Shown: positions 1 to 23,712 of the stretch, piece after piece | Numbering within the stretch: position 1 is the first letter of the stretch | Layout of the letters: each line of letters begins with the position of its first letter | Assembly: GCA_038116945.1 (NCBI GenBank) | Contig: JAYOEY010000011.1 | Span: forward strand, 14,480-78,479 | Direction of reading: 5' to 3' | Source of the DNA: Rhodospirillales bacterium | Lineage (GTDB): Bacteria > Pseudomonadota > Alphaproteobacteria > MPNO01 > UBA2964 | DNA: 64,000 bases | The notes under the pieces: generated by a model | What the model was told of the DNA's origin: nothing | Database searches by the model: none | The model's input: the letters and a program-made list of their open reading frames with translations, nothing else | Made by a program: the position numbers and the translations under genes

Positions 1-822
1 GGCTATCACGGGCTGCGGTTCGACCGCACCGGGCAGTGCATCGCGGTGCCGAGCCAGGACCTGGTGCCGCCGGGCGCCCGCGTGCGGTCCTATCCGCTGG
101 TCGAGAAGAACCGCTGGCTGTGGATCTGGATGGGCGACCCGGCGAAGGCCGACGAGGCGCTGATCCCGGATTATTTCTGGCTGGACAGCCCCGACTGGGC
201 GTCGATCGAGGATACGTTCCATGTCAGGTGCAACTACCAGGCCTATATAGATATCCAGCTCGACCAGACTCATTCGCCGTTCGTTCATCCCGATACGCTC
301 GGCAACGCGGCGAAGCTCCGCATCAAGCCCAGGGTCACGCGGGAAGAGCGCGCGGTGCGCTGCGAAAGGCTCATGCCGAACGACGATCCGCCGCCCTTGT
401 GGGCCAAGGCGGCCAGGATCGTGGGCAAGGGCGATTCATGGAACCGCTGGGTCTATACCCCGCCCGCCACCATCATGTTCGATGTCGGCGCGGCCCAGGC
501 CGGCACCGGCGCGTTCGAGGGCAACCGCGAGTTCGGCATCACGGTCCATAACGCCCATGCCATCACGCCGGAGACGTCCGGTTCGCTGCATCATTTCTGG
601 GCGAGCTCGCGCGATTTCGACATCGACGATGCGGCGACGACCGAGAAACTTTCCGTCATCCGCAAGGTGTTCCGGGAAGACGTTGCCATGTGCGAGGCGC
701 AGCAGGCCTGCCGCGACCGTTTCCCCGGCGCGCCCGAAATCGACGTGGCGATGGATGCGCCGTCGCTACAGGCGCGGAACCTGCTCGCCAGGATGATCGA
801 GGAGGAGCGGGGAGCGGCCTAG
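1..822 (+). CDS. Rieske-type non-haem iron aromatic-ring oxygenase alpha subunit (VanA-like), C-terminal catalytic part; 5' end lies outside the window
   Basis: Reading frame is open from nt 1 (GYHGLRFDRTGQCIAVPSQD is the tail of a Rieske CxH..CxxH region), followed by a catalytic domain; stop at 820-822. Confidence 0.6.
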   Translation, partial: GYHGLRFDRTGQCIAVPSQDLVPPGARVRSYPLVEKNRWLWIWMGDPAKADEALIPDYFWLDSPDWASIEDTFHVRCNYQAYIDIQLDQTHSPFVHPDTLGNAAKLRIKPRVTREERAVRCERLMPNDDPPPLWAKAARIVGKGDSWNRWVYTPPATIMFDVGAAQAGTGAFEGNREFGITVHNAHAITPETSGSLHHFWASSRDFDIDDAATTEKLSVIRKVFREDVAMCEAQQACRDRFPGAPEIDVAMDAPSLQARNLLARMIEEERGAA

Positions 823-1230
823 GCGTCAGGCCGGAAGCCGGCAAAACGGTTCGAGCCATCCCGTCGCGCGGGCTTCGATGGTCCGGCGGCAAAGGCGCGT
901 TTCCCGGTCCCGGCCGCCTGGGAGGGGCTGCATCCTGATGGCGCAGCGTCGCTCGTCGCCGAGAACGATTGGAATGCATCCGCTTCCGCGTCCGGGAGAG
1001 GCGGAAAACCCTGAATCAGCGGATCGGTAACGGCAGCGACGGCGCGATCGCGCTTGCCGCCCTCGTTCGGGGGGCTGCGGGTGCCGCGAGCCGGAGGCGT
1101 CAGGGACACTCGGGACTATTCAGCCCCCGGATATCAATTTATGATATTTCCGACGCTTCATATTGATATCGCGGGCATTTTGCGAACGGACCGGAGTTTC
1201 TGCGATCGCCGTCGATTTTGAGAGGTTTGC

Positions 1231-2190
1231 GTGAAGCTCATGCGTCTGATGAAGGACATTGTCCGACCGCTGGTGTATTTCCTGCCGGACCATATCCACC
1301 GTCAAAGGCGCAATGCCGCGTTGAAATCCAGCCTTCCGCCGGTTTCGAAGACGCAGCTTGCCGATCAGCTCCTGAAACTGGAGATTCCGCCGCGCTCCGT
1401 CGTTCTGGTCCATAGTTCTCTCAAGGCGTTCGGGTATGTCGAGGGCGGGCCAGCGGCGGTCGTGGACGCGCTCGTCGATGCGTTCGTCACCCGAAACCGG
1501 GGCACGGTCATGCTGCCGACTTTTTCGATCAAGGGGACGATGCATGGCGCGCTATCGTCCGGAGAGGTCTTCGACGTCGTTTCGACGCCCTCCAACCTTG
1601 GCGCCATTCCCGAAACGTTTCGGCGGCATCCCCAGGCGCGAAGAAGCCTGCATCCGACCCATTCCTTCGCAGCGATCGGCCCGGATGCGGATCGTTTGGT
1701 CGAAAGCCACCACACCTGCGGCACGAGTTTCGGGGCGGATTCGCCGATGGCCAGAATGCTCGAGTTTCCCAGCTATATCCTGGGGCTCGGCACAAACCTC
1801 GGAACCGTCACATTTTATCATTGCCTCGAGGAGATCGAGAGCGGTTTTCCGATCGACGTGTTTACGGCGGATTCACCTGTTTCGGCGGAATGCCGCGGGT
1901 ATGACGGGAAAGTGTATCGTCTTTCCTTGAACGCCCATGACAGCTCAATTGCGCGGACCCGGATAGACCGGCTGGAAAACAGCGAAATTCGGGACTTCTT
2001 TACGCGGCGGCTCGAACGAAATGCGGGTCTCAGCTGGCATCGGGTCGGCGAGGCCCGGTCATGGCTGGTGGAGGCGGCCGCGTTCTATGACGAGATCCGA
2101 GGCCTGATGTTGCGCGGCATGACGATCTACAGCCGTCCTTCGCAGATTGAGGCATTCGAACGAAACGATGAAACTGCGGTTCGCTGCTGA
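1231..2190 (+). CDS. Aminoglycoside N3-acetyltransferase-like protein (AAC(3)/Antibiotic_NAT family)
   Basis: 319 aa; SLKAFGYVEGG...HPTHSFAAIGPDA motifs typical of the AAC(3) fold; GTG start at 1231 (ATG alternatives at 1240 and 1249); AT-rich promoter with inverted repeat upstream. Confidence 0.6.
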   Translation: MKLMRLMKDIVRPLVYFLPDHIHRQRRNAALKSSLPPVSKTQLADQLLKLEIPPRSVVLVHSSLKAFGYVEGGPAAVVDALVDAFVTRNRGTVMLPTFSIKGTMHGALSSGEVFDVVSTPSNLGAIPETFRRHPQARRSLHPTHSFAAIGPDADRLVESHHTCGTSFGADSPMARMLEFPSYILGLGTNLGTVTFYHCLEEIESGFPIDVFTADSPVSAECRGYDGKVYRLSLNAHDSSIARTRIDRLENSEIRDFFTRRLERNAGLSWHRVGEARSWLVEAAAFYDEIRGLMLRGMTIYSRPSQIEAFERNDETAVRC

Positions 2191-2207
2191 ACCCGGCTGG
2201 AGCGACG

Positions 2208-3422
2208 ATGAGTTTCAAGAACAACGTTAAAAGGCTGGTTCCGGATAGTCTGCTCGAGAAATATTACGCCTTCCAGCTGGACCGCCGGCTTCCCGATTCT
2301 GCGCGCCGGCAGGACAGGCTCGACCGCCGGGGGCCGCCAAGCGAGGACCCGGGATGCCAAGCGGCGATTTCGGTGATCCTCGCATGGCTGTGCCGCGCGC
2401 AGGATTTTTCCGCTACGGGCGACGGCGGCGTCGCCAGACAGTTTTGCTATCTGAACGGTTGGGGAGATTCCTATCCGGAAACAACCGGTTACATTGTCCC
2501 GACGTTTCTGTCAGAAGCCGAGATACAGGCCGACGACTCGCTGTACAGGCGCGCCGAGCGGATGCTGGACTGGCTCGTCGCCATTCAGTTGCCGCAAGGC
2601 GCCTTTCAGGGGGGGCTGGTGACGCACCGGCCCGTGGTCCCGGTCACTTTCAACACGGGACAAATTCTTCTTGGCCTTGCCGCAGGGGCAGGGACGTCCG
2701 GGAAAGAGGAATATCTGTCGGCAATGCATCGAGCGGCGTCCTGGCTTGTCGAGACCCAGGATGCGGACGGGGCCTGGCGCCGTTTTCCGACGCCGTTCGC
2801 AGCGCCCGGCGAGAAAGTCTACGAGACTCACGTATCCTGGGGCCTCTTTGAAGCGGAGAGGGTCGCCCCTGGCAACGGCTACGGCGATGCGGGGCTCAGA
2901 CAGGTCCGGTGGGCCCTTTCGAAACAGGCGCCGAACGGCTGGTTCCAGGATTGCTGTCTCGATGCGCCTCAACGCCCGCTGACCCATACGATCGCCTATG
3001 CGCTGCGAGGAGTCCTGGAAGCCTACCGGCTTTGCGAAGACCGGATATTTCTTGACGCGGGCATTCGGACCGCGGATTCCCTGGTCGAATGCGTCCGGGA
3101 CGACGGGTTCCTGTCGGGCAGGTTTGACAGCCAGTGGCGCCCCATGGCCGCATGGGACTGCCTTACGGGGGCGGCTCAGCTGGCCTTTTGCTGGTTCCAG
3201 CTTTATCGCTGGACCGGAAACCCGCGATATCTGGAGGCCGGGTGCAGGGTGAACTCCTATGTCCGGCGCACGATCAGGACCGAAGGCGACCCCGACCTTG
3301 TCGGCGGCGTCGGCGGCTCGTTCCCGATTTCCGGAGATTACGGGAGATACCAGTACCTCAACTGGGCCGCAAAGTTTTGCATCGACGCCTTTCGGCAGGA
3401 ACTTGCCGTTGCGCGGACGTGA
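2208..3422 (+). CDS. alpha/alpha-toroid protein with prenyltransferase/squalene-oxidase (terpene cyclase-like) repeats
   Basis: 404 aa; QW-like repeats (AIQLPQGAFQGG, ETQDADGAWRRF) and aromatic-rich barrel; 18 bp after the upstream gene, so probably co-transcribed. Confidence 0.45.
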   Translation: MSFKNNVKRLVPDSLLEKYYAFQLDRRLPDSARRQDRLDRRGPPSEDPGCQAAISVILAWLCRAQDFSATGDGGVARQFCYLNGWGDSYPETTGYIVPTFLSEAEIQADDSLYRRAERMLDWLVAIQLPQGAFQGGLVTHRPVVPVTFNTGQILLGLAAGAGTSGKEEYLSAMHRAASWLVETQDADGAWRRFPTPFAAPGEKVYETHVSWGLFEAERVAPGNGYGDAGLRQVRWALSKQAPNGWFQDCCLDAPQRPLTHTIAYALRGVLEAYRLCEDRIFLDAGIRTADSLVECVRDDGFLSGRFDSQWRPMAAWDCLTGAAQLAFCWFQLYRWTGNPRYLEAGCRVNSYVRRTIRTEGDPDLVGGVGGSFPISGDYGRYQYLNWAAKFCIDAFRQELAVART

Positions 3423-3475
3423 CGCGCTGTCCGCAGATGCCCTCGGCTTGACTTCAGACTCCGGCTCTCCCCGTC

Positions 3476-5035
3476 TTACGCCACCGCGGCATTGGCCTTC
3501 TTCCATGCGTCGGCGAGGCTCTTGCGGTCGAGCTTGCCGCGATCGTTCTTGGGAAGCGACTCCACGAAAATCACCTGCTTCGGCGTCTTGAACGGGGCCA
3601 GCGTTTCGCCGCAATGGGCGATCACGGCCTCGGCCGTCAGGCCGCTGTCCGCGCGCGGGACGACGTAGGCGACGACTTCCTCCCCATAGACCCTGTCGGG
3701 CACGCCGCAGGCGGCGCCATCCTCGATATCCGGGTGGCGGGCGAGGATATTGTCGATCTCGACCGGCGAGATATTGACCCCGCCGCGGATGATCAGGTCC
3801 TTGAGGCGTCCTACCACCGTTAGATGCCCGTCCTCGTCGAACTGGCCCAGATCGCCGGTCCGGTGCTCGTCGGGCAGCTTCTCCACCCGCCCGTCGAAAT
3901 GCAGATAGCCCCATGATTTCTGCGGGCCGGAGACGACGATCTCGCCCGGCTCGCCATTGGGGACTTCGCTGTCGCCGTCCATCAGCCGGATGTTCTGGTA
4001 TTTGAGCGGCAGCCCGATGGTGCCGATCTTGCGGTCCGTGCCGCGGTGACTGCACATCAGCCCGCCCTCCGAACAGCCTGCCGACTGGCAGATTCGGATG
4101 CCGTATCGTTCCTCGAACCGGACCCAGTTTTCCGGCAGCATCGGCGCCGACGACGTCATCATCAGACGCAGGTGCGGGATGTCGCGCGCGTGGATATCGA
4201 CCGGCTCAACGAGGAACATGTTGAGGATGGTCGGTACCGCAACGCCGATATCGATCTCGTATTTCCGCACCCAGTCGAAATAGCGGCTGCGCGAAAACCG
4301 TTTCGCCATATAGACAGTCGCCCCGCGCGACAGCGGCCCGCCGAGGCTCATGTTCTGCGACGACAGCCAGGTCCAGGACCGGCTGTCGAGGATATGGTCT
4401 TTGTCCGTCATGCCGACCGCATCGGCTGTGGCATCGTAATTCGGCCAGATCGCCGAATGGGCCTGCAGCACGCCCTTGGGTTTCGCCTCTGTCCCGGAGG
4501 TATAAAAGATCACCGCGATATCGCCCGGGCCGCACACCTCGTCGATGTCGTCTTTGTCGGAACAGTCTTCGATGGCGCCGAAGAAGCCGGTAGAGCCGCC
4601 GTCTTCGCGCCACTCGCCGAGCGCCATCCACTCGGCATCGCCGGCATGGTCGCGCAACTCCTCGAGCCCGATCCCCTCCTGCACCAGCAGCAGTTTCGGG
4701 GCGATGGCGGAAATGATCTCCGCAATATGAGAGCGGTTCATCTCGACATTCGCGGTGGCGATGGTGGCGCCGTAGCGCTGCACCCCGAGGAACACGGCGA
4801 GAAACTCAGCCGAGTTTTCCGACAGCATCAGCACGCGGTCGTTTGCCCCGATTTCCCGGTCGCGGAAGAAATGCGCCATCCGGTTGCCGAGCCGCCACAA
4901 ATTGCGGTAGCTCAGGATTTTCCCGTCCTGGTCGATTGACACCATGTAGGGCTTGTCGCCGAACGCTTTCGCCTGATCGGCGAGGATGCGGCGAACCGGC
5001 CTGTATTCCGTTTCTTTTGCGCTCCCCATGAACAA
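3476..5035 (-). CDS. AMP-dependent synthetase/ligase (ANL superfamily acyl-CoA ligase)
   Basis: 519 aa; YTSGTEAKPKGV (AMP motif), GGVNISPVEIDNIL and C-terminal PKNDRGKLDRK lysine motif. Confidence 0.8.
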   Translation of the reverse strand: MFMGSAKETEYRPVRRILADQAKAFGDKPYMVSIDQDGKILSYRNLWRLGNRMAHFFRDREIGANDRVLMLSENSAEFLAVFLGVQRYGATIATANVEMNRSHIAEIISAIAPKLLLVQEGIGLEELRDHAGDAEWMALGEWREDGGSTGFFGAIEDCSDKDDIDEVCGPGDIAVIFYTSGTEAKPKGVLQAHSAIWPNYDATADAVGMTDKDHILDSRSWTWLSSQNMSLGGPLSRGATVYMAKRFSRSRYFDWVRKYEIDIGVAVPTILNMFLVEPVDIHARDIPHLRLMMTSSAPMLPENWVRFEERYGIRICQSAGCSEGGLMCSHRGTDRKIGTIGLPLKYQNIRLMDGDSEVPNGEPGEIVVSGPQKSWGYLHFDGRVEKLPDEHRTGDLGQFDEDGHLTVVGRLKDLIIRGGVNISPVEIDNILARHPDIEDGAACGVPDRVYGEEVVAYVVPRADSGLTAEAVIAHCGETLAPFKTPKQVIFVESLPKNDRGKLDRKSLADAWKKANAAVA

Positions 5036-5170
5036 ACGCTATCACGCGGTCCGCAAAACAGACAATCGCGCATGGCGCGGTTGGCAGCGGGGATTTTCCC
5101 GCTAAAGTGCCGCGCGGTTTCCAGAGAAGGAAGAATTTTGTCCGATCAGCCCGATACGCGGTCCGGTCCG

Positions 5171-6052
5171 ATGGCGCTGCTCACCTCGCCGGTCACGGCG
5201 GCGATCGCCACGGCTTTCCTGTGGGCCAGCACGACGGTGGTGGTGCGTTATTTTCACGAGGAAATCCCGCCGCTCAGCCTGTCCTTCTGGCGGACGACGG
5301 TGGCGTTCCTCATCCTGCTGCCGTTCGCCGCGCCGGCGCTGCGAACCCAGTGGCCGATCGTCGTCGCCAACCTGAAATGGCTGGCGCTGCTCGCGCTGCT
5401 GCTGTGGGTCGGCGGCAACGCTTTGCTGTTTCTCTCGCTGCAATACACCATCGCGCTCAACGCCGCGGTCATCAACTCTACCGAGCCGATCTTCATCGTG
5501 CTGTTCGCCGCGCTGATCTTTCGCGACCCGTTTACCTGGCGGCAGGGGGCGGGACTCGCGCTATCGCTTGCCGGCGTTCTGACGCTGGTCGCGCAGGGGT
5601 CGCTGGGCCGTCTCGCGTCGCTCGAATTCAACATCGGCGACCTGATCGTGACCTGCGCCTATCTGTCCTGGGGGCTTTATGTCGTGTTCCTGAGAAAGGC
5701 GCCGCACCAGCTCGATCACAAGCTGCTGCTATGTGCGCTCCTGGGGATCGGCGCGGTGTTCATGCTGCCGCTGCACCTGGCGGAGATCGCCTTTGTGCGC
5801 CCGATGCCGGTAAACGGCACCGTCGCGCTGACCGTGATCGGACTCGCCATCGGACCCGGCGTCCTCTCGATGCTGATGTGGAACTACACCATCCGCCAGA
5901 TCGGCCCGGCGCGGGCGGGACAGTTCATTCACACCATTCCGGCCTTTACCGTGGTCATGGCGCTGGTCTTCCTCGACGAAACGCTCCGGGCGTTTCACAT
6001 CGTCGGAATCGTGCTGATCGCGATCGGGCTGGTGGTGGCGTCGCGGAAATAG
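5171..6052 (+). CDS. DMT-superfamily (EamA-like) transporter
   Basis: About 10 TM helices with duplicated EamA-like halves; start taken at internal ATG 5171 (the ORF opens at 5072). Confidence 0.6.
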   Translation: MALLTSPVTAAIATAFLWASTTVVVRYFHEEIPPLSLSFWRTTVAFLILLPFAAPALRTQWPIVVANLKWLALLALLLWVGGNALLFLSLQYTIALNAAVINSTEPIFIVLFAALIFRDPFTWRQGAGLALSLAGVLTLVAQGSLGRLASLEFNIGDLIVTCAYLSWGLYVVFLRKAPHQLDHKLLLCALLGIGAVFMLPLHLAEIAFVRPMPVNGTVALTVIGLAIGPGVLSMLMWNYTIRQIGPARAGQFIHTIPAFTVVMALVFLDETLRAFHIVGIVLIAIGLVVASRK

Positions 6053-6076
6053 TTTGGTTGTGCCGCAGTTCGGAAA

Positions 6077-7654
6077 CTACTTCCCGAACTCTTCCTTCCA
6101 CTCTTCCAGCAATTGAAGCCGGTGCATCTTGCCGCGTTCGGTCTTGGGCAGGCGGTCGCGGACAACTACCTGCTTCGGCATGCGGAACTCGGGCAGCCTG
6201 CCGGCGCAGTGGGCCAGCACCGCCTCCGCCGTGGTCGACCGCCCGTCCTTCGGCGCGACATAGCACACGACCTCTTCGCCGTAGATCGGGTCCGGCACGC
6301 CGATGGTGGCGGCCTCGGCAAGATCGGACATCTGCAGCAGGATATTGTCGATCTCGGCCGGCGAGATATTGACCCCGCCGCGGATGATCAGGTCCTTGGC
6401 GCGGCCGGTGATCCGCACGTAGCCTTCCTCGTCCATGACGCCGAGGTCGCCGGTGCGCAGCCGGTCGCGGGCGTGGATCTGCTCGTCGCCGTTCTCGTCG
6501 AGATAGCGGTACAGGTTGGTTTCGAATCCGCCCAGCTCGACCTCGCCCATCTCGCCGCGCGGCAGCTCGTTTCCGTTCTCGTCGACGATGGCGAGTTCCA
6601 GATAGTCCAGCGGGCGGCCGACCGTGCCGAACTTGCGGGAATGCTCGTTCGACACTCCGATCCAGCCGACCTCGGAACAGCCGTAACCCTGCGCTACGGG
6701 GACGCCGTATTTCTCCTCGAACTGTTTCCATGTCTCCGGCATCAGGGGCGCGGACGACGAGGTCATGAAGCGCAGATGCGGGATGTCGCGATGATGGATA
6801 TCGATCGGCCGGTTCAGGAACATGGCGAGACCGGTCGGGTTGCAGACGCCGATGGTCGCCCGGTTGTCGCGTACCCAGTTGAAATAGCGGCTCTGCGAAA
6901 AATGGCGGGCGAGGATCAGCGTCGCGCCCTTGTAGAGCGAACTCAGCCCCGACAGCACCTGCGCCGAAATCCAGTTAAAGGCCCTGAATTCCAGAATCCG
7001 GTCGTCTTCCGTCATGCCGAGCGCCTCCGCCGTCGGCGGGGTGTTCGAGATCAGCTCGCGGAAGGTGACGATCACGCCCTTGGGCGCCGACGCGGTGCCG
7101 GAGGTATAGTAGATCGAAGCGTCGTCCTCCCACCGGCTGACCGGTTCGACCGGGTCGGGCGGGAACAGCTCAAGCTCGCCGTAAAAGCCGGTGCTGGCGA
7201 ATTCCGAATGCCATTCGCCGAGCGGCATCCAGTCGCCCGGGGTCACGGCGGCGAGCCGGTCGGCGTCGATGCGCGTTTCGGAATCTTCGAACAGGGTGAG
7301 TTTCGGCTTGAGTGCGCTGAGAATGCGCTCGAAATAGACCGCGTTCATCTCCACATGGATGGTGCAGACGGTCGCGCCGTATGCCATGACGCCGATATAG
7401 ACGGCGAGATGCTCGATGCGGTTGTTCGACAACATCGCGACCCGGTCGTTCGGGCCGATCCCTTCCGATTTCAGGAACTGCGCCATGCGGTTCGCGATAT
7501 CGCGAAACTGGCCGTATGTAATCGATTTGTTCTGGTCGACGCTGTGGATGAAGGTTTTGTCCGGGAACCGGTCCGCGTTCCGGTCGATCCAGTCGCGCAG
7601 GCTCGTCTCGGGGGCGTTTGTGCCGCTGGTTCGTTGATCCGCAGGCTGATTCAT
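6077..7654 (-). CDS. AMP-dependent synthetase/ligase, paralogue of 3476-5035
   Basis: 525 aa; YTSGTASAPKGV, GGVNISPAEIDNIL, PKTERGKMHR; same motif spacing as the 3476-5035 gene. Confidence 0.8.
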   Translation of the reverse strand: MNQPADQRTSGTNAPETSLRDWIDRNADRFPDKTFIHSVDQNKSITYGQFRDIANRMAQFLKSEGIGPNDRVAMLSNNRIEHLAVYIGVMAYGATVCTIHVEMNAVYFERILSALKPKLTLFEDSETRIDADRLAAVTPGDWMPLGEWHSEFASTGFYGELELFPPDPVEPVSRWEDDASIYYTSGTASAPKGVIVTFRELISNTPPTAEALGMTEDDRILEFRAFNWISAQVLSGLSSLYKGATLILARHFSQSRYFNWVRDNRATIGVCNPTGLAMFLNRPIDIHHRDIPHLRFMTSSSAPLMPETWKQFEEKYGVPVAQGYGCSEVGWIGVSNEHSRKFGTVGRPLDYLELAIVDENGNELPRGEMGEVELGGFETNLYRYLDENGDEQIHARDRLRTGDLGVMDEEGYVRITGRAKDLIIRGGVNISPAEIDNILLQMSDLAEAATIGVPDPIYGEEVVCYVAPKDGRSTTAEAVLAHCAGRLPEFRMPKQVVVRDRLPKTERGKMHRLQLLEEWKEEFGK

Positions 7655-7911
7655 CTCATTACATGCCCGGCAGGGAAATCTGACGCGCCAAGGCGGCCCC
7701 GGCGCAGCGTCGGCGCGAGCGTTGACCCGCGGAAACCGAGTCTCTAAAATATGATTGATTAGTCAACAATTAGCTATCGAAGGTTTTGTCAGCGTTGGAA
7801 TTCTGCCAAAAATCTATATAGTCCGCGGTACATTTAGGCAAGCGAACGCGCCCGCTGGGAGGCGAAAGCCGGGGTCCGGAACGGGCGCCGGCGAATGGAG
7901 GAAGACAGGAA

Positions 7912-9603
7912 ATGGCTGCACAGGACGCTGCGGCGGCGGACGCCGGCAACGAGCCGGTCCGTTTCGATACCAGCCCGGAAAAATACCGGCACTGGAAGCT
8001 GACGATCGACGGCAATGTCGCCACGCTGGCGATGGACGTCGACGAGAGCGCGACGCTGAAGCCGGGCTACGAGCTCAAGCTCAACTCCTACGATCTCGGC
8101 GTCGATATCGAGCTTTACGACGCGATCCAGCGGCTGCGGTTCGAGCATCCGGAAGTCGGTGCGGTGATCCTGCGGTCGGCCAAGCCGAACGTGTTCTGCG
8201 CCGGCGCCAATATCAGGATGCTGGGACAGTCGACCCACGACCATAAGGTCAATTTCTGCAAATTCACCAACGAGACCCGAAACGGGATCGAGGACGCGAC
8301 CGAGAACTCGCACCAGACCTACCTGTGCGCGATCAACGGGGCGGCCGCCGGCGGCGGGTACGAGCTGGCGCTGGCGACCGACCACATCATGCTGATCGAT
8401 GACGGCTCCTCGACCGTATCGCTGCCCGAACTGCCGCTGCTCGCCGTGCTGCCCGGGACCGGCGGGCTGACGCGCCTGGTCGACAAGCGCAAGGTTCGGC
8501 ATGACCGCGCCGATTTCTTCTGCACCACCTCCGAAGGCATGCGCGGCAAGCGCGCGGTCGACTGGAACATCATCGACGAGAGCGTGCCCAAATCCCGCTT
8601 CGAGGAAACCGTTGCCGAACGGGCGCAGGAATTCGCCGCAAGGTCGGACCGGCCGGCCGGCGCGAAAGGCGTCACGCTGACGCCGCTCAATGTCCGGATC
8701 GACGGAGATTCCATCGAATACGACCATGTTTCCATCGCGATCGACCGGAGCCGGAATCTCGCCGAATTCACGATTGCGGGTCCTGCCGGTGCGCCGCCTG
8801 CCGATGCCGTCGATGTGGCCGGGCTGGGCGTTGCCTTCTGGCCGTTCGCCCTGGCGCGCGAGCTTGACGCCGCGATCATGCATCTGCGTCTCAACGAGGG
8901 GGAGATCGGCACGTGGGTGTTCCGGACGAAGGGCGACGGGGCGCTGGTGGCGGCCTACGACGATCTGCTGGAACGCGAAGCCGCGGACTGGCTGGTGCGC
9001 GAGATTACGCTCTACCTCAAACGCACGCTCAAGCGCGTCGATGTTTCCTCGCGCAGCCTGATCGCGCTGGTCGAACCGGGCAGCTGCTTTGCCGGTACGC
9101 TGCTCGAACTCGTTCTGATCGCCGACCGCTCCTATATGCTGGACGGGCCGCTGGAGGGGTCGAACCTGCCGGATGCGACCGTCACGCTGACCGGCATGAA
9201 TTTCGGACCTTACCCGATGGGCAACGGGCTGACGCGGCTGGAAACCCGCCTGCTGGGCGAGCCAGACAGGGTCGAGGACGCGAAAAATTCCGTCGGCGAC
9301 GTGCTGGATGCGCAGGCCGCCGACGCGCTCGGTCTCGTGACCTTCATTCCCGACGATATCGACTGGGAAGACGAGGTGCGTATCGCCATCGAGGAACGCG
9401 CGTCGTTCTCGCCCGACGGGCTGATCGGCATGGAAGCCAATCTCCGCTTTGCCGGTCCCGAAACGATGGAAACCAAGATTTTCGGCCGTTTGAGCGCGTG
9501 GCAGAACTGGATTTTCCAGCGTCCCAACGCTGCCGGCGCAGAGGGCGCGCTCAAGCTCTACGGCACCGGCCAGCGCAGCCAGTTTGACAAGAAGAGAGTA
9601 TAG
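7912..9603 (+). CDS. boxC: Benzoyl-CoA-dihydrodiol lyase (2,3-epoxybenzoyl-CoA dihydrolase) BoxC, crotonase superfamily
   Basis: 563 aa; crotonase-fold N-terminus (VFCAGANI, GGGYELALATDHIML) plus the long BoxC-specific C-terminal domain; immediately followed by boxB. Confidence 0.75.
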   Translation: MAAQDAAAADAGNEPVRFDTSPEKYRHWKLTIDGNVATLAMDVDESATLKPGYELKLNSYDLGVDIELYDAIQRLRFEHPEVGAVILRSAKPNVFCAGANIRMLGQSTHDHKVNFCKFTNETRNGIEDATENSHQTYLCAINGAAAGGGYELALATDHIMLIDDGSSTVSLPELPLLAVLPGTGGLTRLVDKRKVRHDRADFFCTTSEGMRGKRAVDWNIIDESVPKSRFEETVAERAQEFAARSDRPAGAKGVTLTPLNVRIDGDSIEYDHVSIAIDRSRNLAEFTIAGPAGAPPADAVDVAGLGVAFWPFALARELDAAIMHLRLNEGEIGTWVFRTKGDGALVAAYDDLLEREAADWLVREITLYLKRTLKRVDVSSRSLIALVEPGSCFAGTLLELVLIADRSYMLDGPLEGSNLPDATVTLTGMNFGPYPMGNGLTRLETRLLGEPDRVEDAKNSVGDVLDAQAADALGLVTFIPDDIDWEDEVRIAIEERASFSPDGLIGMEANLRFAGPETMETKIFGRLSAWQNWIFQRPNAAGAEGALKLYGTGQRSQFDKKRV

Positions 9604-9605
9604 CC

Positions 9606-11033
9606 ATGTCGATCGATCTCACGGCCCGCATTCCGAACAACGTCGATCTGGGAGAGGACCGCCGCCTGCAGCGTGCGCTTGAAGGCTGGCAGCCCAGCTT
9701 TCTCGACTGGTGGAAGGATCTCGGACCCGAGGGCACGCTCGATTACGACGTCTATCTGCGTACCGCGATCAGCGTCGATGCCGACGGGTGGGCAAATTTC
9801 GGCTACGTCAAAATGCCCGAATACCGCTGGGGCATCTTTCTCGCGGAACCGGTCGAGGGACGAACCATCGCGTTCGGCGAAAACAGGGGACAGCCGGTCT
9901 GGAACGAGGTTCCCGGCGAGCATCGCTCGACGCTGCGCCGGCTGATCGTGACGCAGGGCGATACCGAGCCCGCCTCGGTCGAGCAGCAGCGCCTTCTCGG
10001 CCTGACCTGCCCGTCGCTTTACGATCTGCGCAACCTGTTCCAGGTGAACGTGGAAGAGGGGCGGCATCTGTGGGCGATGGTCTACCTGCTGCACGCCTAT
10101 TTCGGGCGCGACGGGCGCGAGGAAGCCGAGGCGATGCTGGAGCGCCATTCGGGCGATCCCGACAAGCCGCGCATTCTCGGCGCGTTCAACGAAAAGACGC
10201 CGGACTGGCTGGCCTATTTCATGTTCACCTACTTCACCGACCGCGACGGCAAGTACCAGCTCGGCTCGCTGGCCGAATCCGGCTTCGATCCGCTGGCGCG
10301 CACCTGCCGCTTCATGCTGACCGAGGAAGGCCACCACATGTTCATCGGCACGACCGGCATCCAGCGCGTCGTGACCCGGACGCTGGAGGTGATGAAGGAA
10401 ATCAAGTCGGAGGATCCCGACAAGGTGCGTGCGGCGGGCGCGATCGATCTGCCGACCATCCAGCGCTATCTCAACTTCCATTTCAGCGTGTCGCTCGACC
10501 TGTTCGGTCAGGAGCTCTCGACCAACGCGGCCAACTACTACACCGCAGGCCTGAAAGGCCGGTTCGAGGAAAGCAAGAACGAGGACGATCACGTTCTTTC
10601 CAACGGCACCTACAACGTGACGCTGCTGGAAAACAACGAGGTCCGCGAAACCACGCAGAACCAGCTGCTCGCTGTCAACGAACGGCTGCGCGACGATTAC
10701 ATCGCCGACTGCCAGCTCGGGGTGACCCGCTGGAGCAAGATCATCAAGAAGGCCGGGGTCGAATTCGAGCTGAAGCTGCCGCATCGCGGATTCAACCGCC
10801 ATATCGGCTCGTTCGCAGGGGCGAGGATTTCACCGCAGGGCAAGGTGCTGACCGAGGCCGAATGGACGCACCATTCCGCCGACTGGCTGCCGTCGACCGC
10901 CGACCGCGAATTCGTCCGTTCGCTGATGACGAAGCCGGTCACCGAGCCCGGCAAGTTCGCCGGCTGGGTCGCCCCTCCGGGACGCGGCATCGACGGCAAG
11001 CCGCTCGATTTCGAGTATGTGAAGTTCCACTGA
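9606..11033 (+). CDS. boxB: Benzoyl-CoA 2,3-epoxidase (oxygenase component) BoxB, di-iron enzyme
   Basis: 475 aa, the expected BoxB length; ferritin-like di-iron ligands (EEGRHLWAM, EEGHHMF); starts 3 nt after the boxC stop. Confidence 0.75.
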   Translation: MSIDLTARIPNNVDLGEDRRLQRALEGWQPSFLDWWKDLGPEGTLDYDVYLRTAISVDADGWANFGYVKMPEYRWGIFLAEPVEGRTIAFGENRGQPVWNEVPGEHRSTLRRLIVTQGDTEPASVEQQRLLGLTCPSLYDLRNLFQVNVEEGRHLWAMVYLLHAYFGRDGREEAEAMLERHSGDPDKPRILGAFNEKTPDWLAYFMFTYFTDRDGKYQLGSLAESGFDPLARTCRFMLTEEGHHMFIGTTGIQRVVTRTLEVMKEIKSEDPDKVRAAGAIDLPTIQRYLNFHFSVSLDLFGQELSTNAANYYTAGLKGRFEESKNEDDHVLSNGTYNVTLLENNEVRETTQNQLLAVNERLRDDYIADCQLGVTRWSKIIKKAGVEFELKLPHRGFNRHIGSFAGARISPQGKVLTEAEWTHHSADWLPSTADREFVRSLMTKPVTEPGKFAGWVAPPGRGIDGKPLDFEYVKFH

Positions 11034-11053
11034 TCCAGAGCGGATCGGAAACG

Positions 11054-11082
11054 AAAAGGGCGGCCTGGTGCCGCCCTTTTTC
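11054..11082. terminator. Bidirectional rho-independent terminator between boxB(+) and the araC-family gene(-)
   Basis: GGGCGGC-ctggt-GCCGCCC stem followed by TTTTT; A-run on the other side. Confidence 0.6.
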
Positions 11083-11110
11083 GTTGCCGCGGTTGGCTGG
11101 CGTCGGTTCC

Positions 11111-12235
11111 CTAGAGTGTTAAATGCCTGATCCAGTCTTCGTATCGACGATCGAGGCTGTTCGCATCTTCTCCGTCTCTTTCCAGCCGGGACCGGCCGTT
11201 TCGAACGTCTGTTGGCGATATCCCGAACCGTTTCCGGAACGCCCGGCTGAAGGCGGTATCGCTGGCATATCCGCAGCGCATGGCGATATCGAATACCGGC
11301 AGGTGAAAACGGTTTCTGTCTGCCAGCATGAACAGCGCCGACCGCAATCGTCGTTCCCGGATATAGCTTGCGATCCCGTCCTGGGATTCAAACATCCTGT
11401 AAAGCCTGGAACGCGAGATTCCGGCCTGGCGCGACACAAAGGCGACCGAAAGGTCGGGGCGCGACAGGTTCTGTTCGATGACCCGTTTTGCGACGGTGAT
11501 CTGGGCCAGTCGTATTCCCTCGCTCTGACCGGGACTGTCCCCGACCGCACCGTTGAGACAGGCCGCGACAAGGCCGGTGGTGGCAGGGCCAAGCTGCTGC
11601 GCCCGTTCCGCCGTCAGGTTATGTGAGCTCTTTTCAAGAGAAACCATATGATCTTTCAGAAGACCGGTCATCGGGTCCCCGGCGGACAGCACGCGGCCAT
11701 GTTGATCGTCTTCCGAACGCAGCAGCGGCGCGAGCTGGTCCCGGGGGACGATCAGGGACAGGTTCGTGAAATCGGAGGTTCTCGTGGTTACGTCGCGCGC
11801 CAGATCGTAAATGATGATGCTGCCTTCGGGACAGTCGATTTCGACATCGTCGATGCTCATCGTCTGGCCGCCCTCGAGGAAGAACTGGACCATGTAATGA
11901 TCCATGCCGTCCTGCCCGATGACCAGGGGCGTTCGCCGCCATTCCTGCGCGCGGGTGGTTGTTCTGGCGAGCATCAGGTTGCCGAACATCGCGGCATCGA
12001 CTTCTGCCAAAAACGGTCGGCCCCTGGCCGGGTCGAGAAGCTCCACGTCGAAGATGCAGGCGATGCTTTCGCGCCAGGCATCGAACCGTTCGGTTGCCGG
12101 CAGGTCCTCGACGGAGAAAACGGCGCGCGAAGCTCGTTCCGGGGCGTCCCGTCCCTCGTCGGACGTCATACCATCCCGCTTTCCGCAGTCGGGCCTTTTC
12201 GTTGCATTCGAGCCGTCTCCCGGCAGAAAAACCAT
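11111..12235 (-). CDS. AraC/XylS-family transcriptional regulator
   Basis: 374 aa; C-terminal double HTH (LSVAFVSRQAGISRSRLYRMF ... DTAFSRAFRKRFGISPTD) with an N-terminal ligand-binding domain. Confidence 0.8.
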   Translation of the reverse strand: MVFLPGDGSNATKRPDCGKRDGMTSDEGRDAPERASRAVFSVEDLPATERFDAWRESIACIFDVELLDPARGRPFLAEVDAAMFGNLMLARTTTRAQEWRRTPLVIGQDGMDHYMVQFFLEGGQTMSIDDVEIDCPEGSIIIYDLARDVTTRTSDFTNLSLIVPRDQLAPLLRSEDDQHGRVLSAGDPMTGLLKDHMVSLEKSSHNLTAERAQQLGPATTGLVAACLNGAVGDSPGQSEGIRLAQITVAKRVIEQNLSRPDLSVAFVSRQAGISRSRLYRMFESQDGIASYIRERRLRSALFMLADRNRFHLPVFDIAMRCGYASDTAFSRAFRKRFGISPTDVRNGRSRLERDGEDANSLDRRYEDWIRHLTL

Positions 12236-12483
12236 AATGACTGTATTGCATTATGCTGGGCAGGGCAATTTAGCGGGTTTATCCGTCGAATCCCGGGTTC
12301 TGATGCCGGATTTCGGCAAAATGGACGAATGGCGCGTGTTTTGGGACGAACGGCGCGGCACGCGGCGCGGGGCCGCTATACAGTGTAACCGGTTCGAAAG
12401 GGTTCGCGGTTTCTGCGCAATGCTCCGTTGGACTCAAAAGAATAAGGGGCACGGCCCGAACCGTGCTGACTGGAGGTCCGTCG

Positions 12484-13083
12484 ATGAACAAGTTTGGGTA
12501 TTTCGCGTTATCCGTCTGTCTCGGCATCGCCGCAATCGGCGGACAGGTCCGGCCTGTCGGCGCGACGCCGATCAACGGCGCGGCGACGGGGCTGGTATCG
12601 CCGACTGTGTCGATCGATTTCGAGACGCCGTCGCTCGCGCTCGGCACCGTCGCAACCAACCAGTTTGCCGGCGTGACGTTCGGCACCAATTTCGAGATCC
12701 GCGACAGCGTCGAATTCGCCAACATCACCGGGAAATATCTCGATGACATCAGTTCGGGGAACCCCGGCCCGATCGTCTTCGATCAGGTTTTGACGGCTGT
12801 CTCGTTCAATCTGCGTTCCGACCCCGGGTCCACGACTTTTCAGGCCTTTCTGAGCGGCGCCCTGGTCGAGAGCTTCTCGGCAGCGACAAACCTCACCAAT
12901 ACCAGCAATTTCTACGGGTTCGAGAATATCCTGTTCGACGAGATTCGCCTGTCCGGTGCGGTGAGCAACGGCTTCAATCTCGACAATCTCGAATTCATCA
13001 CAGTGCCGGAGCCGTCCTCCATCGCCCTTCTCGGGCTGGGCGTGATCGGCCTCGGCGCGATCCGGCGGCGCAGGAACGCCTGA
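12484..13083 (+). CDS. PEP-CTERM sorting-domain secreted protein
   Basis: Signal peptide MNKFGYFALSVCLGIAAIGG; C-terminal VPEPSSIALLGLGVIGLGAIRRRRNA (PEP motif + TM + Arg cluster); start taken at ATG 12484. Confidence 0.75.
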   Translation: MNKFGYFALSVCLGIAAIGGQVRPVGATPINGAATGLVSPTVSIDFETPSLALGTVATNQFAGVTFGTNFEIRDSVEFANITGKYLDDISSGNPGPIVFDQVLTAVSFNLRSDPGSTTFQAFLSGALVESFSAATNLTNTSNFYGFENILFDEIRLSGAVSNGFNLDNLEFITVPEPSSIALLGLGVIGLGAIRRRRNA

Positions 13084-13104
13084 TTTTCCGGAATGGCTGA
13101 ACTG

Positions 13105-13140
13105 AAAACGGCGGTCCCGTGGGGCCGCCGTTTCAGTTTC
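13105..13140 (+). terminator. Rho-independent terminator after the PEP-CTERM gene
   Basis: AAAACGGCGG-loop-CCGCCGTTT hairpin. Confidence 0.5.
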
Positions 13141-13180
13141 GTGCACGGTGCCTGAGGGCAACTGTTAGGGAAGTGAGTGC

Positions 13181-14374: not shown

Positions 14375-14402
14375 GGTTCTATTAAACTGTCCTGTGTTCC
14401 TG

Positions 14403-14417
14403 AGCCGTGTGGCACGG
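14403..14417. promoter_or_regulatory. Palindrome in the divergent hydroxylase/ligase promoter
   Basis: GCCGTG-tgg-CACGGC. Confidence 0.25.
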
Positions 14418-14483
14418 CATAATAGGGGAAACCGGCGCCGTATCGAAGCGTCGAGACAATTGCAGCTCGTTCAGGGGGTTAAG

Positions 14484-23614: not shown

Positions 23615-23712
23615 GGCGGTAACGGGAACGTTCCCGATTGAGCATTTCCCATGCGACGTACCGGGGCCATGGCGGCCCCGGTCTCGTCGGCGGATGCAAG
23701 AAGGAAGAAGAT

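Follow-up and report, generated by a model that had tools for sequence, protein, structure and literature searches.

A conserved acyltransferase–toroid gene pair in a Rhodospirillales genome with a probable role in glycan tailoring

The adjacent genes for an AAC(3)-fold N-acyltransferase (NAT) and a protein with an (alpha/alpha)6 toroid fold form a genuine conserved unit, for which the literature searches turned up no account, in agreement with an earlier sequence-only reading that had not recognised the pairing as a described system. The functional unit is probably a horizontally acquired glycan-tailoring cassette that comprises these two genes and not five, as proposed in that reading, and its two proteins most likely act together in decorating a cell-surface polysaccharide. 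The toroid appears to be the fixed element of a widespread system, itself uncharacterised, in which the transferase partners are swapped.

All five open reading frames, their domain assignments, the QW-like repeats and an inverted repeat were confirmed by the ORF list, Pfam and a repeat search in the window, i.e., the whole 64-kb stretch of DNA analysed (Table 1). The earlier interpretation of these features holds in part: the pairing of NAT and toroid and the distinction of NAT from a plain AAC(3) stand, the link to the neighbouring ANL ligases and the DMT exporter does not.

Table 1. Positions of the cassette, its genes and the neighbouring genes in the window.
Feature	Position	Strand	Length	Description
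Two-gene cassette	826..3470			Present here, missing in the collinear relative L092 (blastn)
Inverted repeat	1125..1175			5' of the NAT gene, core GATATCAAT / ATTGATATC
NAT	1231..2190	+	319 aa	AAC(3)-fold (Antibiotic_NAT) N-acyltransferase, Pfam PF02522
Toroid	2208..3422	+	404 aa	Predicted cytoplasmic six-hairpin (alpha/alpha)6 protein, QW-type repeats
ANL1	3476..5035	-		Acyl-CoA ligase, Pfam AMP-binding; neighbour outside the unit
EamA/DMT	5171..6052	+		Transporter, Pfam EamA; neighbour outside the unit
ANL2	6077..7654	-		Acyl-CoA ligase, divergent from boxC; neighbour outside the unit

A probable insertion in an aromatic-acid cluster

The closest available relative, L092, is collinear with the window at 85% nucleotide identity and shows the order VanA-like oxygenase, ANL1 remnant, DMT, ANL2, boxC and boxB. 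By blastn, window positions 1-825 correspond to L092 positions 2452-3276 and window positions 3471-3647 to L092 positions 3350-3526, leaving only 73 bp in L092 where the window holds positions 826-3470. This clean 2.6-kb indel is exactly the NAT–toroid pair. Moreover, GC3 is 0.71 in the NAT gene and 0.73 in the toroid gene vs. 0.83-0.87 in the genes for VanA, ANL1, DMT, ANL2, BoxC and BoxB, showing that the deviating composition is confined to the first two genes and does not extend over the whole five-gene block, as had been suggested.

The gene neighbourhood of the window is not conserved in relatives. L092 and L091, the closest relatives with respect to the DMT gene, keep DMT-ANL2-boxC-boxB without the pair, and DMT orthologues with 80-86% identity adjoin ANL2-boxC-boxB in its absence. 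Vice versa, a DMT homologue is found in none of 87 loci encoding toroid homologues, and ANL matches occur in only seven of them, with 22-30% identity and at variable distance. ANL1 is convergent to the toroid gene and 46% identical to ANL2; since L092 has only a 171-aa remnant of it and L091 none, it can be regarded as a dispensable paralogue of the aromatic-acid cluster. The DMT protein is annotated with 293 aa by another source, fitting the start given in Table 1. The flanks with the VanA-like oxygenase, BoxC, BoxB, a 3-hydroxybenzoate 6-monooxygenase and a benzoate-CoA ligase constitute an aromatic-acid catabolic cluster.

Because the indel in L092, the GC3 shift and the missing synteny in relatives agree, the pair is independent of the ANL and DMT genes. 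These are unrelated to it and part of the aromatic-acid/benzoyl-CoA (box) catabolic cluster; the NAT–toroid cassette seems to have been placed there by chance. A single small-molecule tailoring, export or self-resistance module formed by NAT, toroid, ANL1, DMT and ANL2, as proposed in the sequence-only reading, would fit the physical adjacency of the genes and the fact that secondary metabolism makes use of AAC(3)-fold enzymes, FrbF being an example. However, the comparative genomics, together with the convergent orientation of ANL1 and the catabolic nature of the flanks, largely refutes such a module, making it extremely improbable. Two of the outcomes that the reading itself had named as refuting it were observed, i.e., a barrel of non-terpenoid type and the lack of conservation of the five-gene neighbourhood.

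The arms of the inverted repeat upstream of the NAT gene comprise 14 nt (1125-1138 and 1162-1175) with 23 nt between them. The repeat had been described as perfect, which is correct for its 9-nt core, the full arms being 86% complementary. Exact copies of the 9-mer core within the 64-kb window are restricted to the two arms; the repeat showed no conservation when the DNA upstream of the orthologous pairs of four relatives was compared, and its region gave no Rfam match. The former label of an AT-rich promoter is not supported, as a sigma-70 promoter scan of positions 800-1230 found nothing and the GC content dips only to 0.57 at 1051-1350. It is possible that the repeat serves as an operator.

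A constant toroid with exchanged partners

The toroid family is large and uncharacterised; clustering at 50% identity divides it into about 1,000 groups, distributed over many phyla. The neighbours were counted in 84 non-redundant toroid loci, which also cover many phyla. The loci derive from the best 80 matches by similarity to the query and are thus a biased sample of the family. NAT adjoins the toroid on the same strand in 36/84 loci and is fused to it in three. The gene order varies, with NAT preceding the toroid in close alphaproteobacterial relatives and the toroid preceding NAT in Oxalobacteraceae and Rhodocyclaceae. Similarly, fusions of both proteins exist in one order (P0058, P0065, P0072 and P0103; in P0072 the toroid domain was verified to precede NAT) and in the reverse order (P0362, P0369, P0370, P0444 and P0504). 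Many of the closest NAT homologues and toroid matches fall on contigs of equal size. The occurrence as neighbours in either order and as fusions in both orders among relatives bears out the view that NAT and toroid are a true functional pair.

NAT is one of several partners. A FemAB-like GNAT adjoins the toroid in 11 and an ATP-grasp-like protein in 8 of the 84 loci; 25 loci have neither of these nor NAT next to the toroid, several of these contigs being short. Furthermore, 27 fusions were found among the best 150 representatives of the toroid family, the fusion partners being NAT, ATP-grasp-like and FemAB-like proteins, a SAM methyltransferase, a sulfotransferase (P0368, P0415), a formyltransferase, GT4 and GT2 glycosyltransferases and a Wzx flippase. 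The median identity of the toroids is equal between (53-56%) and within partner classes (55-58%).

In relatives the toroid is associated with polysaccharide biosynthesis. Genes for Wzx, Wzy-like, Asn-synthase-like, GT2 or acyltransferase-3 proteins lie within 10 kb of the toroid gene in 54/84 loci, the Wzy-like neighbour being a TIGR03097 exosortase-A O-glycosylation ligase (488 bits). Two loci (L002, L006) contain PrsK/PrsR-like regulators, Bac_transf and a UDP-glucose dehydrogenase. As a further example, L089 is a Wza/Wzc locus with genes for a GFO/IDH/MocA oxidoreductase, a DegT aminotransferase, a hexapeptide acetyltransferase and a 2-epimerase, an amino-sugar gene set that may be read as WbpB/E/D/I-like. 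Polysaccharide genes were not found within 10 kb of the pair in the window or in the four closest relatives (L004, L008, L009/L088 and L090), nor are genes for Wzx, Wzy, AsnS, GT2, AT3, FemAB-like or ATP-grasp-like proteins present anywhere in the 64-kb window. This counts against the glycan-tailoring model; the glycan target of the window copy must be encoded elsewhere.

Properties of the two proteins

NAT matches Pfam PF02522 (Antibiotic_NAT) with 151.4 bits (E 3.8e-44, cut-off 25), confirming its assignment, and carries an N-terminal extension of approximately 55 residues ahead of the Pfam domain; another source places the ATG at 1240, resulting in a protein of 316 aa. A transmembrane segment was looked for and not found. 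The AAC(3) catalytic motif is Thr-x-hydrophobic-His-hydrophobic-Ala-Glu (PMC8956665). In NAT the motif T194-x-x-H197-x-x-E200 is intact (TFYHCLE, residues 194-200), is of the TxFHxxE type, has Leu in place of Ala relative to the AAC(3) consensus and aligns with the motif of YokD. Among 28 NATs with a toroid partner, H197 and E200 hardly vary (at least 93% conserved). Because the Thr-x-x-His-x-x-Glu motif is kept, NAT is expected to catalyze the acyl-CoA-dependent N-acylation of an amine.

The intact domain and motif, the public annotation of NAT homologues as 'AAC(3) family N-acetyltransferase' and the resistance conferred by many environmental Antibiotic_NAT proteins (PMC8956665) might suggest that NAT is a working aminoglycoside 3-N-acetyltransferase mediating resistance and that the toroid is an unrelated passenger. 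However, NAT stays far below all curated NCBIfam cut-offs for AAC(3), among them those of AAC_3 (114.8 vs. 270 bits), AAC_3_II (80.3 vs. 480) and AAC_3_IV (72.3 vs. 420). Its relatives in the PDB are YokD, AAC(3)-VIa and FrbF with E values of about 1e-19, placing solved AAC(3) enzymes only as remotely similar and level with the non-resistance proteins YokD and FrbF, whose clade has members without aminoglycoside activity. Moreover, the kept adjacency or fusion to the toroid and the polysaccharide loci point to another substrate. A role in resistance is thus very unlikely, as anticipated in the sequence-only reading.

The toroid gene starts after an 18-bp gap behind NAT with a GGAG 7 nt 5' of its ATG. 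Scored with the family HMMs, the window proteins reach 627 bits (toroid) and 353 bits (NAT). Four QW-like repeats are located at residues 122, 179, 235 and 292 with a spacing of about 57, and the family profile aligns with five QW repeats of squalene-hopene cyclase. Pfam matches are weak, with SQHop_cyclase_C at 26.9 bits being borderline (cut-off 26.1) and GH127 at 24.7 bits; in the family, weak matches to SQHop_cyclase_C occur in 71/71 and to Prenyltrans in 59/71 members. By sequence, the strongest relationships of the toroid are hence the terpene-cyclase QW repeats, which counts against a sugar-processing enzyme. The designation as terpene-cyclase-like is correct for these repeats only: the catalytic DxDD is missing, with D.DD or DD..D in 0/71 family members, and the toroid scores 26.5 bits against TIGR01787, under the cut-off of 322.7.

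The structure model of the toroid (pLDDT 95.5) shows a non-terpenoid barrel. The top 50 Foldseek matches comprise only GH88, AGE-type epimerases, GH76 and further barrels of the glycoside-hydrolase type, and terpene cyclases are not among these closest structural neighbours; of the solved folds, those of sugar epimerases and GH88 are nearest. Identity to the fold neighbours is only 9-16%, and the toroid has no significant sequence or profile match to the AGE/GH88 families; a Pfam search of the window toroid gave no match to GlcNAc_2-epim or Glyco_hydro_88. Within the family, weak matches to GH88 (E up to 0.1) were obtained for 28/71 members and to C5-epim_C (PF06662) for 39/71, the window toroid itself scoring 15.2 bits against PF06662, under the threshold of 23.3. 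At a median identity of 36%, the ionisable residues that occupy the first turn of alternate helices show a conservation of at least 95%. E91, H260, Y264, C318, K389, D393, Y89 and Y378 stay almost unchanged even where identity falls to about 31%, and the window toroid has the complete family-conserved set of Y89/E91, H260/Y264, C318/Q324, Y378 and K389/D393.

Two further explanations of toroid function were considered. As an adaptor, a non-enzymatic toroid would bind the portion that lipid-linked intermediates (undecaprenyl-diphosphate-glycan) have in common, presenting them to the paired or fused transferase, here NAT. The highly diverse partners including Wzx, a flippase of Und-PP-linked units, the equal conservation of the toroid whatever its partner, the QW repeats and the weak Prenyltrans/SQHop_cyclase similarity tying it to isoprenoid-binding toroids, and the conserved basic residues K389 (wider family), R115 and R267 (close members) are in line with this model. 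Nevertheless, we consider it unlikely: the near-invariant residues lie at the canonical (alpha/alpha)6 catalytic face and are more typical of catalysis, a search for a membrane-binding segment in the toroid found none, and there is one toroid per locus despite many transferases there. Alternatively, the toroid might be a hydrolase, lyase or transglycosylase of the GH88/GH127/GH76 type trimming or remodelling the repeat unit, instead of an epimerase. Its cytoplasmic location in biosynthetic loci argues against such cleavage, as enzymes trimming EPS chains mostly work in the periplasm; the Zn/Cys ligand set of GH127 is missing, C250 not being conserved in the family, and the window toroid meets no threshold of a GH family. 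A glycan-cleaving activity is therefore judged to be quite unlikely.

A proposed mechanism and its relation to known systems

In the preferred glycan-tailoring model, the toroid would be a soluble cytoplasmic (alpha/alpha)6 barrel that elsewhere lies in Wzx/Wzy-type and exosortase (PEP-CTERM)-type loci beside or fused to one group-transfer enzyme, and NAT would be one such partner, acting as acyl-CoA-dependent N-acyltransferase with its Thr194/His197/Glu200 motif. In a first step, the barrel might apply a common acid-base step to a sugar residue in a lipid-linked or nucleotide-linked cytoplasmic glycan intermediate, most likely epimerising or isomerising this residue in a reversible manner by means of the invariant face of Y89/E91, H260/Y264, C318/Q324 and K389/D393. 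In a second step, the partner transferase would cap the product, here by N-acylating a sugar amine, thereby making the change irreversible. Since no member of the family is characterised, we infer the type of reaction from the distant fold neighbours, and the substrate and the logic of processing followed by capping likewise represent a proposal. Direct observations are the pairing, the fusions, the diverse partners, the polysaccharide surroundings in relatives, the indel, the fold and the conserved residues.

The heparan-sulfate D-glucuronyl C5-epimerase is a reversible epimerase with a toroid domain, the product of which is locked by the partner 2-O-sulfotransferase. The cassette may be functionally analogous to this system, as suggested by the weak C5-epim_C matches and the toroid–sulfotransferase fusions in the family. 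In contrast to it, the window toroid remains below the PF06662 threshold, the partners are far more varied and the epimerase role is only proposed. With the AGE superfamily (cellobiose 2-epimerase, N-acylglucosamine 2-epimerase, mannose isomerase and YihS) and GH88 the toroid shares the (alpha/alpha)6 fold and is, judged from the model, structurally close. It differs from them in its low identity, in its QW repeats and in its conserved set of E91, H260, Y264, C318, K389 and D393, which is probably distinct from the two-His constellation of AGE and the Asp constellation of GH88. QW-type repeats also occur in class II terpene cyclases and the beta-subunits of protein prenyltransferases; unlike the cyclases, the toroid lacks DxDD and a score at the level of TIGR01787 and has its nearest folds elsewhere.

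NAT shares the sequence-level fold family and the catalytic motif with the Antibiotic_NAT/AAC(3) family, to which FrbF, YokD and BA2930 belong without being resistance enzymes, and is set apart from the AAC(3) resistance families by its scores and its N-terminal extension. It is further marked by its obligate association or fusion with a toroid and by the polysaccharide loci, for which no described Antibiotic_NAT member was found in the literature searched. Finally, in XrtA/PEP-CTERM (exosortase) and Wzx/Wzy loci, the toroids of relatives, with or without a partner, sit among the TIGR03097 ligase, XrtA-type amidotransferase-like Asn synthases, FemAB-like proteins, Wzx, GT2/GT4 and PrsK/PrsR-like regulators, whereas in the window and in the four closest relatives the pair stands alone as an orphan two-gene cassette.

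The cassette and the surrounding aromatic-acid catabolic island

The five open reading frames that the sequence-only reading had combined to a tailoring, export or self-resistance module were all found in place, i.e., the genes for an Antibiotic_NAT/AAC(3)-fold acyltransferase (NAT), a QW-repeat six-hairpin protein (the toroid), two AMP-binding ligases (ANL1 and ANL2) and a transporter (DMT). Between the stop codon of the NAT gene and the start codon of the toroid gene lie 18 bp, with GGAG positioned 7 nt ahead of the toroid ATG. The annotated NAT start differs by source, GTG at 1231 (319 residues, Logan) versus ATG at 1240 (316 residues, NCBI), and the ATG of the relatives' NAT aligns with window position 1231.

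Features of the aromatic-acid island, the enclosed pair and the genes downstream
Feature	Position	Strand	Remark
VanA-like Rieske oxygenase, C-terminal part	46-822		island member
NAT	1231-2190	+	PF02522, 151 bits
Toroid	2208-3422	+	borderline only: SQHop_cyclase_C 26.9 bits, GH127 catalytic domain 24.7 bits, Pec_lyase
ANL1	3476-5035	-	AMP-binding ligase
DMT	5171-6052	+	EamA/DMT transporter
ANL2	6077-7654	-	AMP-binding ligase; 46% identity to ANL1
BoxC	7912-9603		922 bits
BoxB	9606-11033		836 bits
FeaR/AraC-type regulator	11111-12235	-	island member
3-Hydroxybenzoate 6-monooxygenase	13181-14374	-	496 bits, exceeds its cut-off
Benzoate-CoA ligase family gene	ORF 14229-16058		620 bits; family match from about residue 107
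Amidase	16288-17613		downstream, unrelated to pair
Arsenic-efflux-family membrane protein	17620-18870	-	downstream, unrelated to pair
Class I ribonucleotide reductase alpha + beta	21695-23614 + 23638-24675		downstream, unrelated to pair

Window positions 1-16058 form an aromatic-acid catabolic island that encloses the pair of NAT and toroid. In the locus encoding the closest DMT relative (L092, 86% amino-acid identity) the order is UbiD, Rieske/VanA oxygenase, an ANL1 remnant, DMT, ANL2, BoxC and BoxB, and in the next one (L091, DMT 80%) it is DMT, two unrelated genes, ANL2, BoxC, BoxB and an AraC regulator; the pair is absent from both. By blastn, window 1-825 corresponds to L092 2452-3276, and window 3471-3647 and 4665-11033 are collinear with L092 at ~82% and 85% identity, while the intervening window 826-3470 corresponds to merely 73 bp. 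Moreover, GC3 is 0.71 and 0.73 for NAT and toroid versus 0.83-0.87 for VanA, ANL1, DMT, ANL2, BoxC and BoxB. Collinearity without the pair, the difference in GC3 and the island flanks together show that the pair is a 2.6-kb cassette that was inserted into, or lost from, the island. Mobile-element scars were not evident by eye at the indel borders, and a plasmid origin was rejected as a megablast search of 1100-7700 against PLSDB returned zero matches.

The ligases and the transporter are members of the island and their adjacency to the pair is accidental. When 80 fetched genomic loci with toroid relatives and the loci from contig look-ups were searched with all window proteins, a DMT homologue was present in 0 of 87 loci, and ANL ligases gave matches of 22-30% identity only, at variable distance, in 7 of 87. 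The proposed five-gene module therefore does not hold, its neighbourhood being kept neither in the toroid loci nor in the loci of the DMT relatives.

Several further differences were observed within the island. ANL1 is intact in the window, its copy in L092 is a 171-residue remnant lacking ~1 kb of internal sequence (window 3648-4664 versus L092 3355-3870), and it is absent in L091, suggesting that ANL1 is a dispensable paralogue of ANL2. A second indel separates window 11034-13179 from L092 9869-11594, where genes for HU-like and JmjC-domain proteins replace the region of the AraC/FeaR-type regulator, which has a low GC3 (0.71) resembling that of the NAT-toroid pair.

The inverted repeat reported from the sequence alone is present in the 405-bp leader of the pair (arms 1125-1138 and 1162-1175, perfect core GATATCAAT/ATTGATATC), and the promoter claimed with it was not confirmed, as a sigma-70-like site was not found in the leader. 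The 9-mer core has no exact copies in the window beyond its two arms. The repeat was ruled out as a conserved element because it is missing upstream of orthologous pairs, which have a TATAAGTAG motif instead; the pairs in L004, L008, L009 and L090 have this AT-rich motif in common, ~40 nt ahead of the NAT start codon, and the window lacks it and has the palindrome in its stead. With no Rfam match at E<=0.1 within 1-8000, the idea that the leader holds a riboswitch or another RNA element was rejected.

Conservation of the pair and exchange of the toroid's partner

NAT and toroid constitute a genuine conserved unit. Of 84 non-redundant toroid loci, 36 have a NAT gene that directly adjoins the toroid gene on the same strand, in most cases such that the stop codon of one overlaps the start codon of the other, and three have the two fused. 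The closest alphaproteobacterial relatives show the order NAT-toroid (NAT identity 57-59%), and Oxalobacteraceae and Rhodocyclaceae the order toroid-NAT (NAT identity ~35%). Natural fusions exist in both orders, i.e., toroid-NAT proteins of 669 residues (P0058, P0065, P0072, P0103; further examples are P0444 and P0504) and NAT-toroid proteins of 712-744 residues (P0362, P0369, P0370). Furthermore, many of the closest NAT homologues lie on contigs equal in size to those with toroid matches. The pair stands alone in a variable spot in three genomes of related Alphaproteobacteria, with argJ-mutT on one side and a methyltransferase-isochorismatase-accA block on the other, suggesting that it behaves as a self-contained mobile cassette.

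This spot looks like an integration hot-spot, and two of these genomes carry large TIR/NB-ARC/TPR (STAND-like) genes immediately upstream of the pair (L088 4341-7268; L090 6346-8886). The anti-phage defence role raised by these genes was rejected, since PADLOC returned zero matches to the pair, with neither protein nor a fusion being recognized. In the searchable literature, neither the pair nor the toroid family was found to be described.

In the loci sampled, the toroid is found mostly in polysaccharide contexts. Genes for Wzx, Wzy-like, Asn-synthase-like, GT2 or acyltransferase-3 proteins occur within 10 kb in 54 of the 84 toroid loci. The Wzy-like neighbour matches TIGR03097, 'O-glycosylation ligase, exosortase A system-associated', with 488 bits, where the cut-off is 188, and the best match of the Asn-synthase neighbour is the XrtA/PEP-CTERM amidotransferase. 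Single loci carry PrsK/PrsR-like regulators, Bac_transf and UDP-glucose dehydrogenase, or Wza/Wzc together with a GFO/IDH/MocA oxidoreductase, a DegT aminotransferase, a hexapeptide acetyltransferase and a 2-epimerase, an amino-sugar gene set that we read as WbpB/E/D/I-like.

Without an adjacent NAT, the toroid is adjoined by a FemAB-like GNAT in 11 and by an ATP-grasp-like protein in eight of the 84 loci. Fusions of at least 500 residues account for 27 of the best 150 toroid family representatives, and the partners are Antibiotic_NAT (five and two partial), GT4 (five), ATP-grasp-like proteins (three), SAM methyltransferases (three; P0365, P0421, P0431), sulfotransferases (two; P0368, P0415), formyltransferases (two; P0436, P0481), GT2 (two), a FemAB-like protein, a Wzx flippase (P0420, 954 residues) and one unknown. 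P0371 (836 residues) has an N-terminal part of ~420 residues without Pfam match. Of the methyltransferase fusions, two carry a Trm112p-like zinc ribbon at the N terminus. Toroids of different partner classes are as similar to each other (median identity 53-56%) as toroids within one class (55-58%), in a sample of loci that consists of the top 80 matches to the query. Fusions, swapped neighbours and equal identity thus indicate that the toroid is the constant element coupled to one variable enzyme that builds or decorates a glycan. The pattern of the family is a constant toroid with a variable transferase; the instance in the window is an orphan cassette, with no polysaccharide genes within the 64 kb.

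The two proteins

The NAT can be aligned with solved members of its family, among them YokD, AAC(3)-VIa and FrbF, at E of about 1e-19. The catalytic motif of the AAC(3) family consists of Thr, His and Glu, and YokD, BA2930 and FrbF are members without aminoglycoside activity (PMC8956665). In the NAT the motif is T194/H197/E200, of which H197 and E200 recur in at least 93% of 28 NATs that have a toroid as partner. The retained motif and the YokD/FrbF-type relatives let us expect an acyl-CoA-dependent N-acylation of an amine, which most plausibly resides on a sugar. The protein scores far under every AAC(3) NCBIfam cut-off, which bears out the earlier statement that it is not a lone aminoglycoside-resistance gene.

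For the toroid, the QW-like repeats were recovered at residues 122, 179, 235 and 292, and the family profile aligns to five squalene-hopene cyclase QW repeats. The AlphaFold model (pLDDT 95.5, pTM 0.92) consists of one (alpha/alpha)6 barrel after ~45 residues of short helices, without a transmembrane segment. The terpene-cyclase-like interpretation was not upheld by the structure search: the top 50 Foldseek matches are all GH88, AGE-type epimerases, GH76 or other glycoside-hydrolase-type barrels, at 9-16% sequence identity, and sequence searches against the PDB (single sequence and family profile) yielded only marginal, QW-repeat-driven matches. The 71 closest family members have weak Pfam matches to SQHop_cyclase_C (71), Prenyltrans (59), the GH127 catalytic domain (58), Pec_lyase (48), C5-epim_C (39) and GH88 (28), and DxDD and DDxxD motifs are found in 0 of 71. 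By the sequence and motif tests applied, the family does not qualify as terpene cyclases, as GH88 or as AGE-type epimerases; it is an unassigned member of the six-hairpin clan. The unit as a whole is neither a canonical AAC(3) resistance gene nor a terpene cyclase, nor is it part of a ligase/exporter module. The toroid family is highly conserved and comprises 1,009 clusters (50% identity) at E<=1e-30, from Proteobacteria, Acidobacteriota, Gemmatimonadota, Nitrospirota, Planctomycetota and others, and 3,106 at E<=1e-3; no member is characterized, and in the absence of a dedicated annotation model the usual labels are 'hypothetical' or 'prenyltransferase/squalene oxidase repeat protein'.

Among 128 toroid domains that share 31-56% of their residues with the window protein (median 36%), the polar residues Y89, E91, Y95, Q127, T150, H260, Y264, C318, Q324, Y378, K389 and D393 and the aromatic residues W60, W85, F148 and W386 are at least 95% conserved. 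These residues are located in the first turn, or immediately ahead of it, of helices 90-107, 147-164, 259-276, 319-336 and 385-403, which by the general architecture of (alpha/alpha)6 enzymes would form the active-site face. We take this face for an enzyme active site and not for a passive surface. A zinc site with Cys-Cys-His ligands, as in LanC, prenyltransferases or GH127, was rejected because C250 is poorly kept (C in only 32 of 128); C318 and H260 are kept across the wider family, and CHG and WCxG motifs are absent.

Proposed role and comparison with known systems

With considerable doubt, we propose that the toroid represents a new, very widespread enzyme family of bacterial polysaccharide biosynthesis, acting as a reversible sugar epimerase/isomerase or Und-PP-glycan handler whose product is locked by the coupled or fused transferase. 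In the most economical reading, a cytoplasmic glycan intermediate would first have one of its sugar residues processed by the toroid, as the common step, and the coupled transferase would modify the product at once, such that capping might render a reversible epimerase/isomerase step irreversible. Locking would be accomplished by N-acyl, aminoacyl, formyl, methyl, sulfo or glycosyl transfer or by Wzx flipping. This model is suggested by the sugar epimerases among the structural neighbours, by the ionisable residues at the catalytic face, by the tight coupling up to fusion and by the diversity of the partners, which range from any group transfer to the next glycosyl transfer and flipping. Alternatively, the toroid may be a non-catalytic docking module for Und-PP-glycans, for which the QW/prenyl-binding ancestry and the Wzx fusion speak and with which our reading of the conserved face as an active site disagrees, or it may be a hydrolase, lyase or transglycosylase.

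If the role as a locked sugar-processing enzyme is right, thousands of genes would receive a corrected annotation, since glycan transferases of exopolysaccharide loci recurrently have a member of the family as partner, and resistome surveys would no longer count the 'AAC(3) family' genes of such pairs among the resistance determinants. Moreover, an overlooked step in EPS/biofilm-matrix formation would have been found, including in activated-sludge Accumulibacter and Dechloromonas, and the AAC(3) antibiotic-resistance fold would be given an ancestral physiological role in glycan N-acylation.

An analogy for processing followed by locking is the eukaryotic couple of heparan-sulfate C5-epimerase and 2-O-sulfotransferase, and the proposed mechanism, if true, would constitute a general 'process-and-lock' logic akin to it. 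The toroid family echoes this couple by its sulfotransferase fusions and its weak C5-epim_C matches. Finally, in its way of working the unit resembles other paired sugar-modifying enzymes of polysaccharide loci, from which it differs by its two unusual folds.
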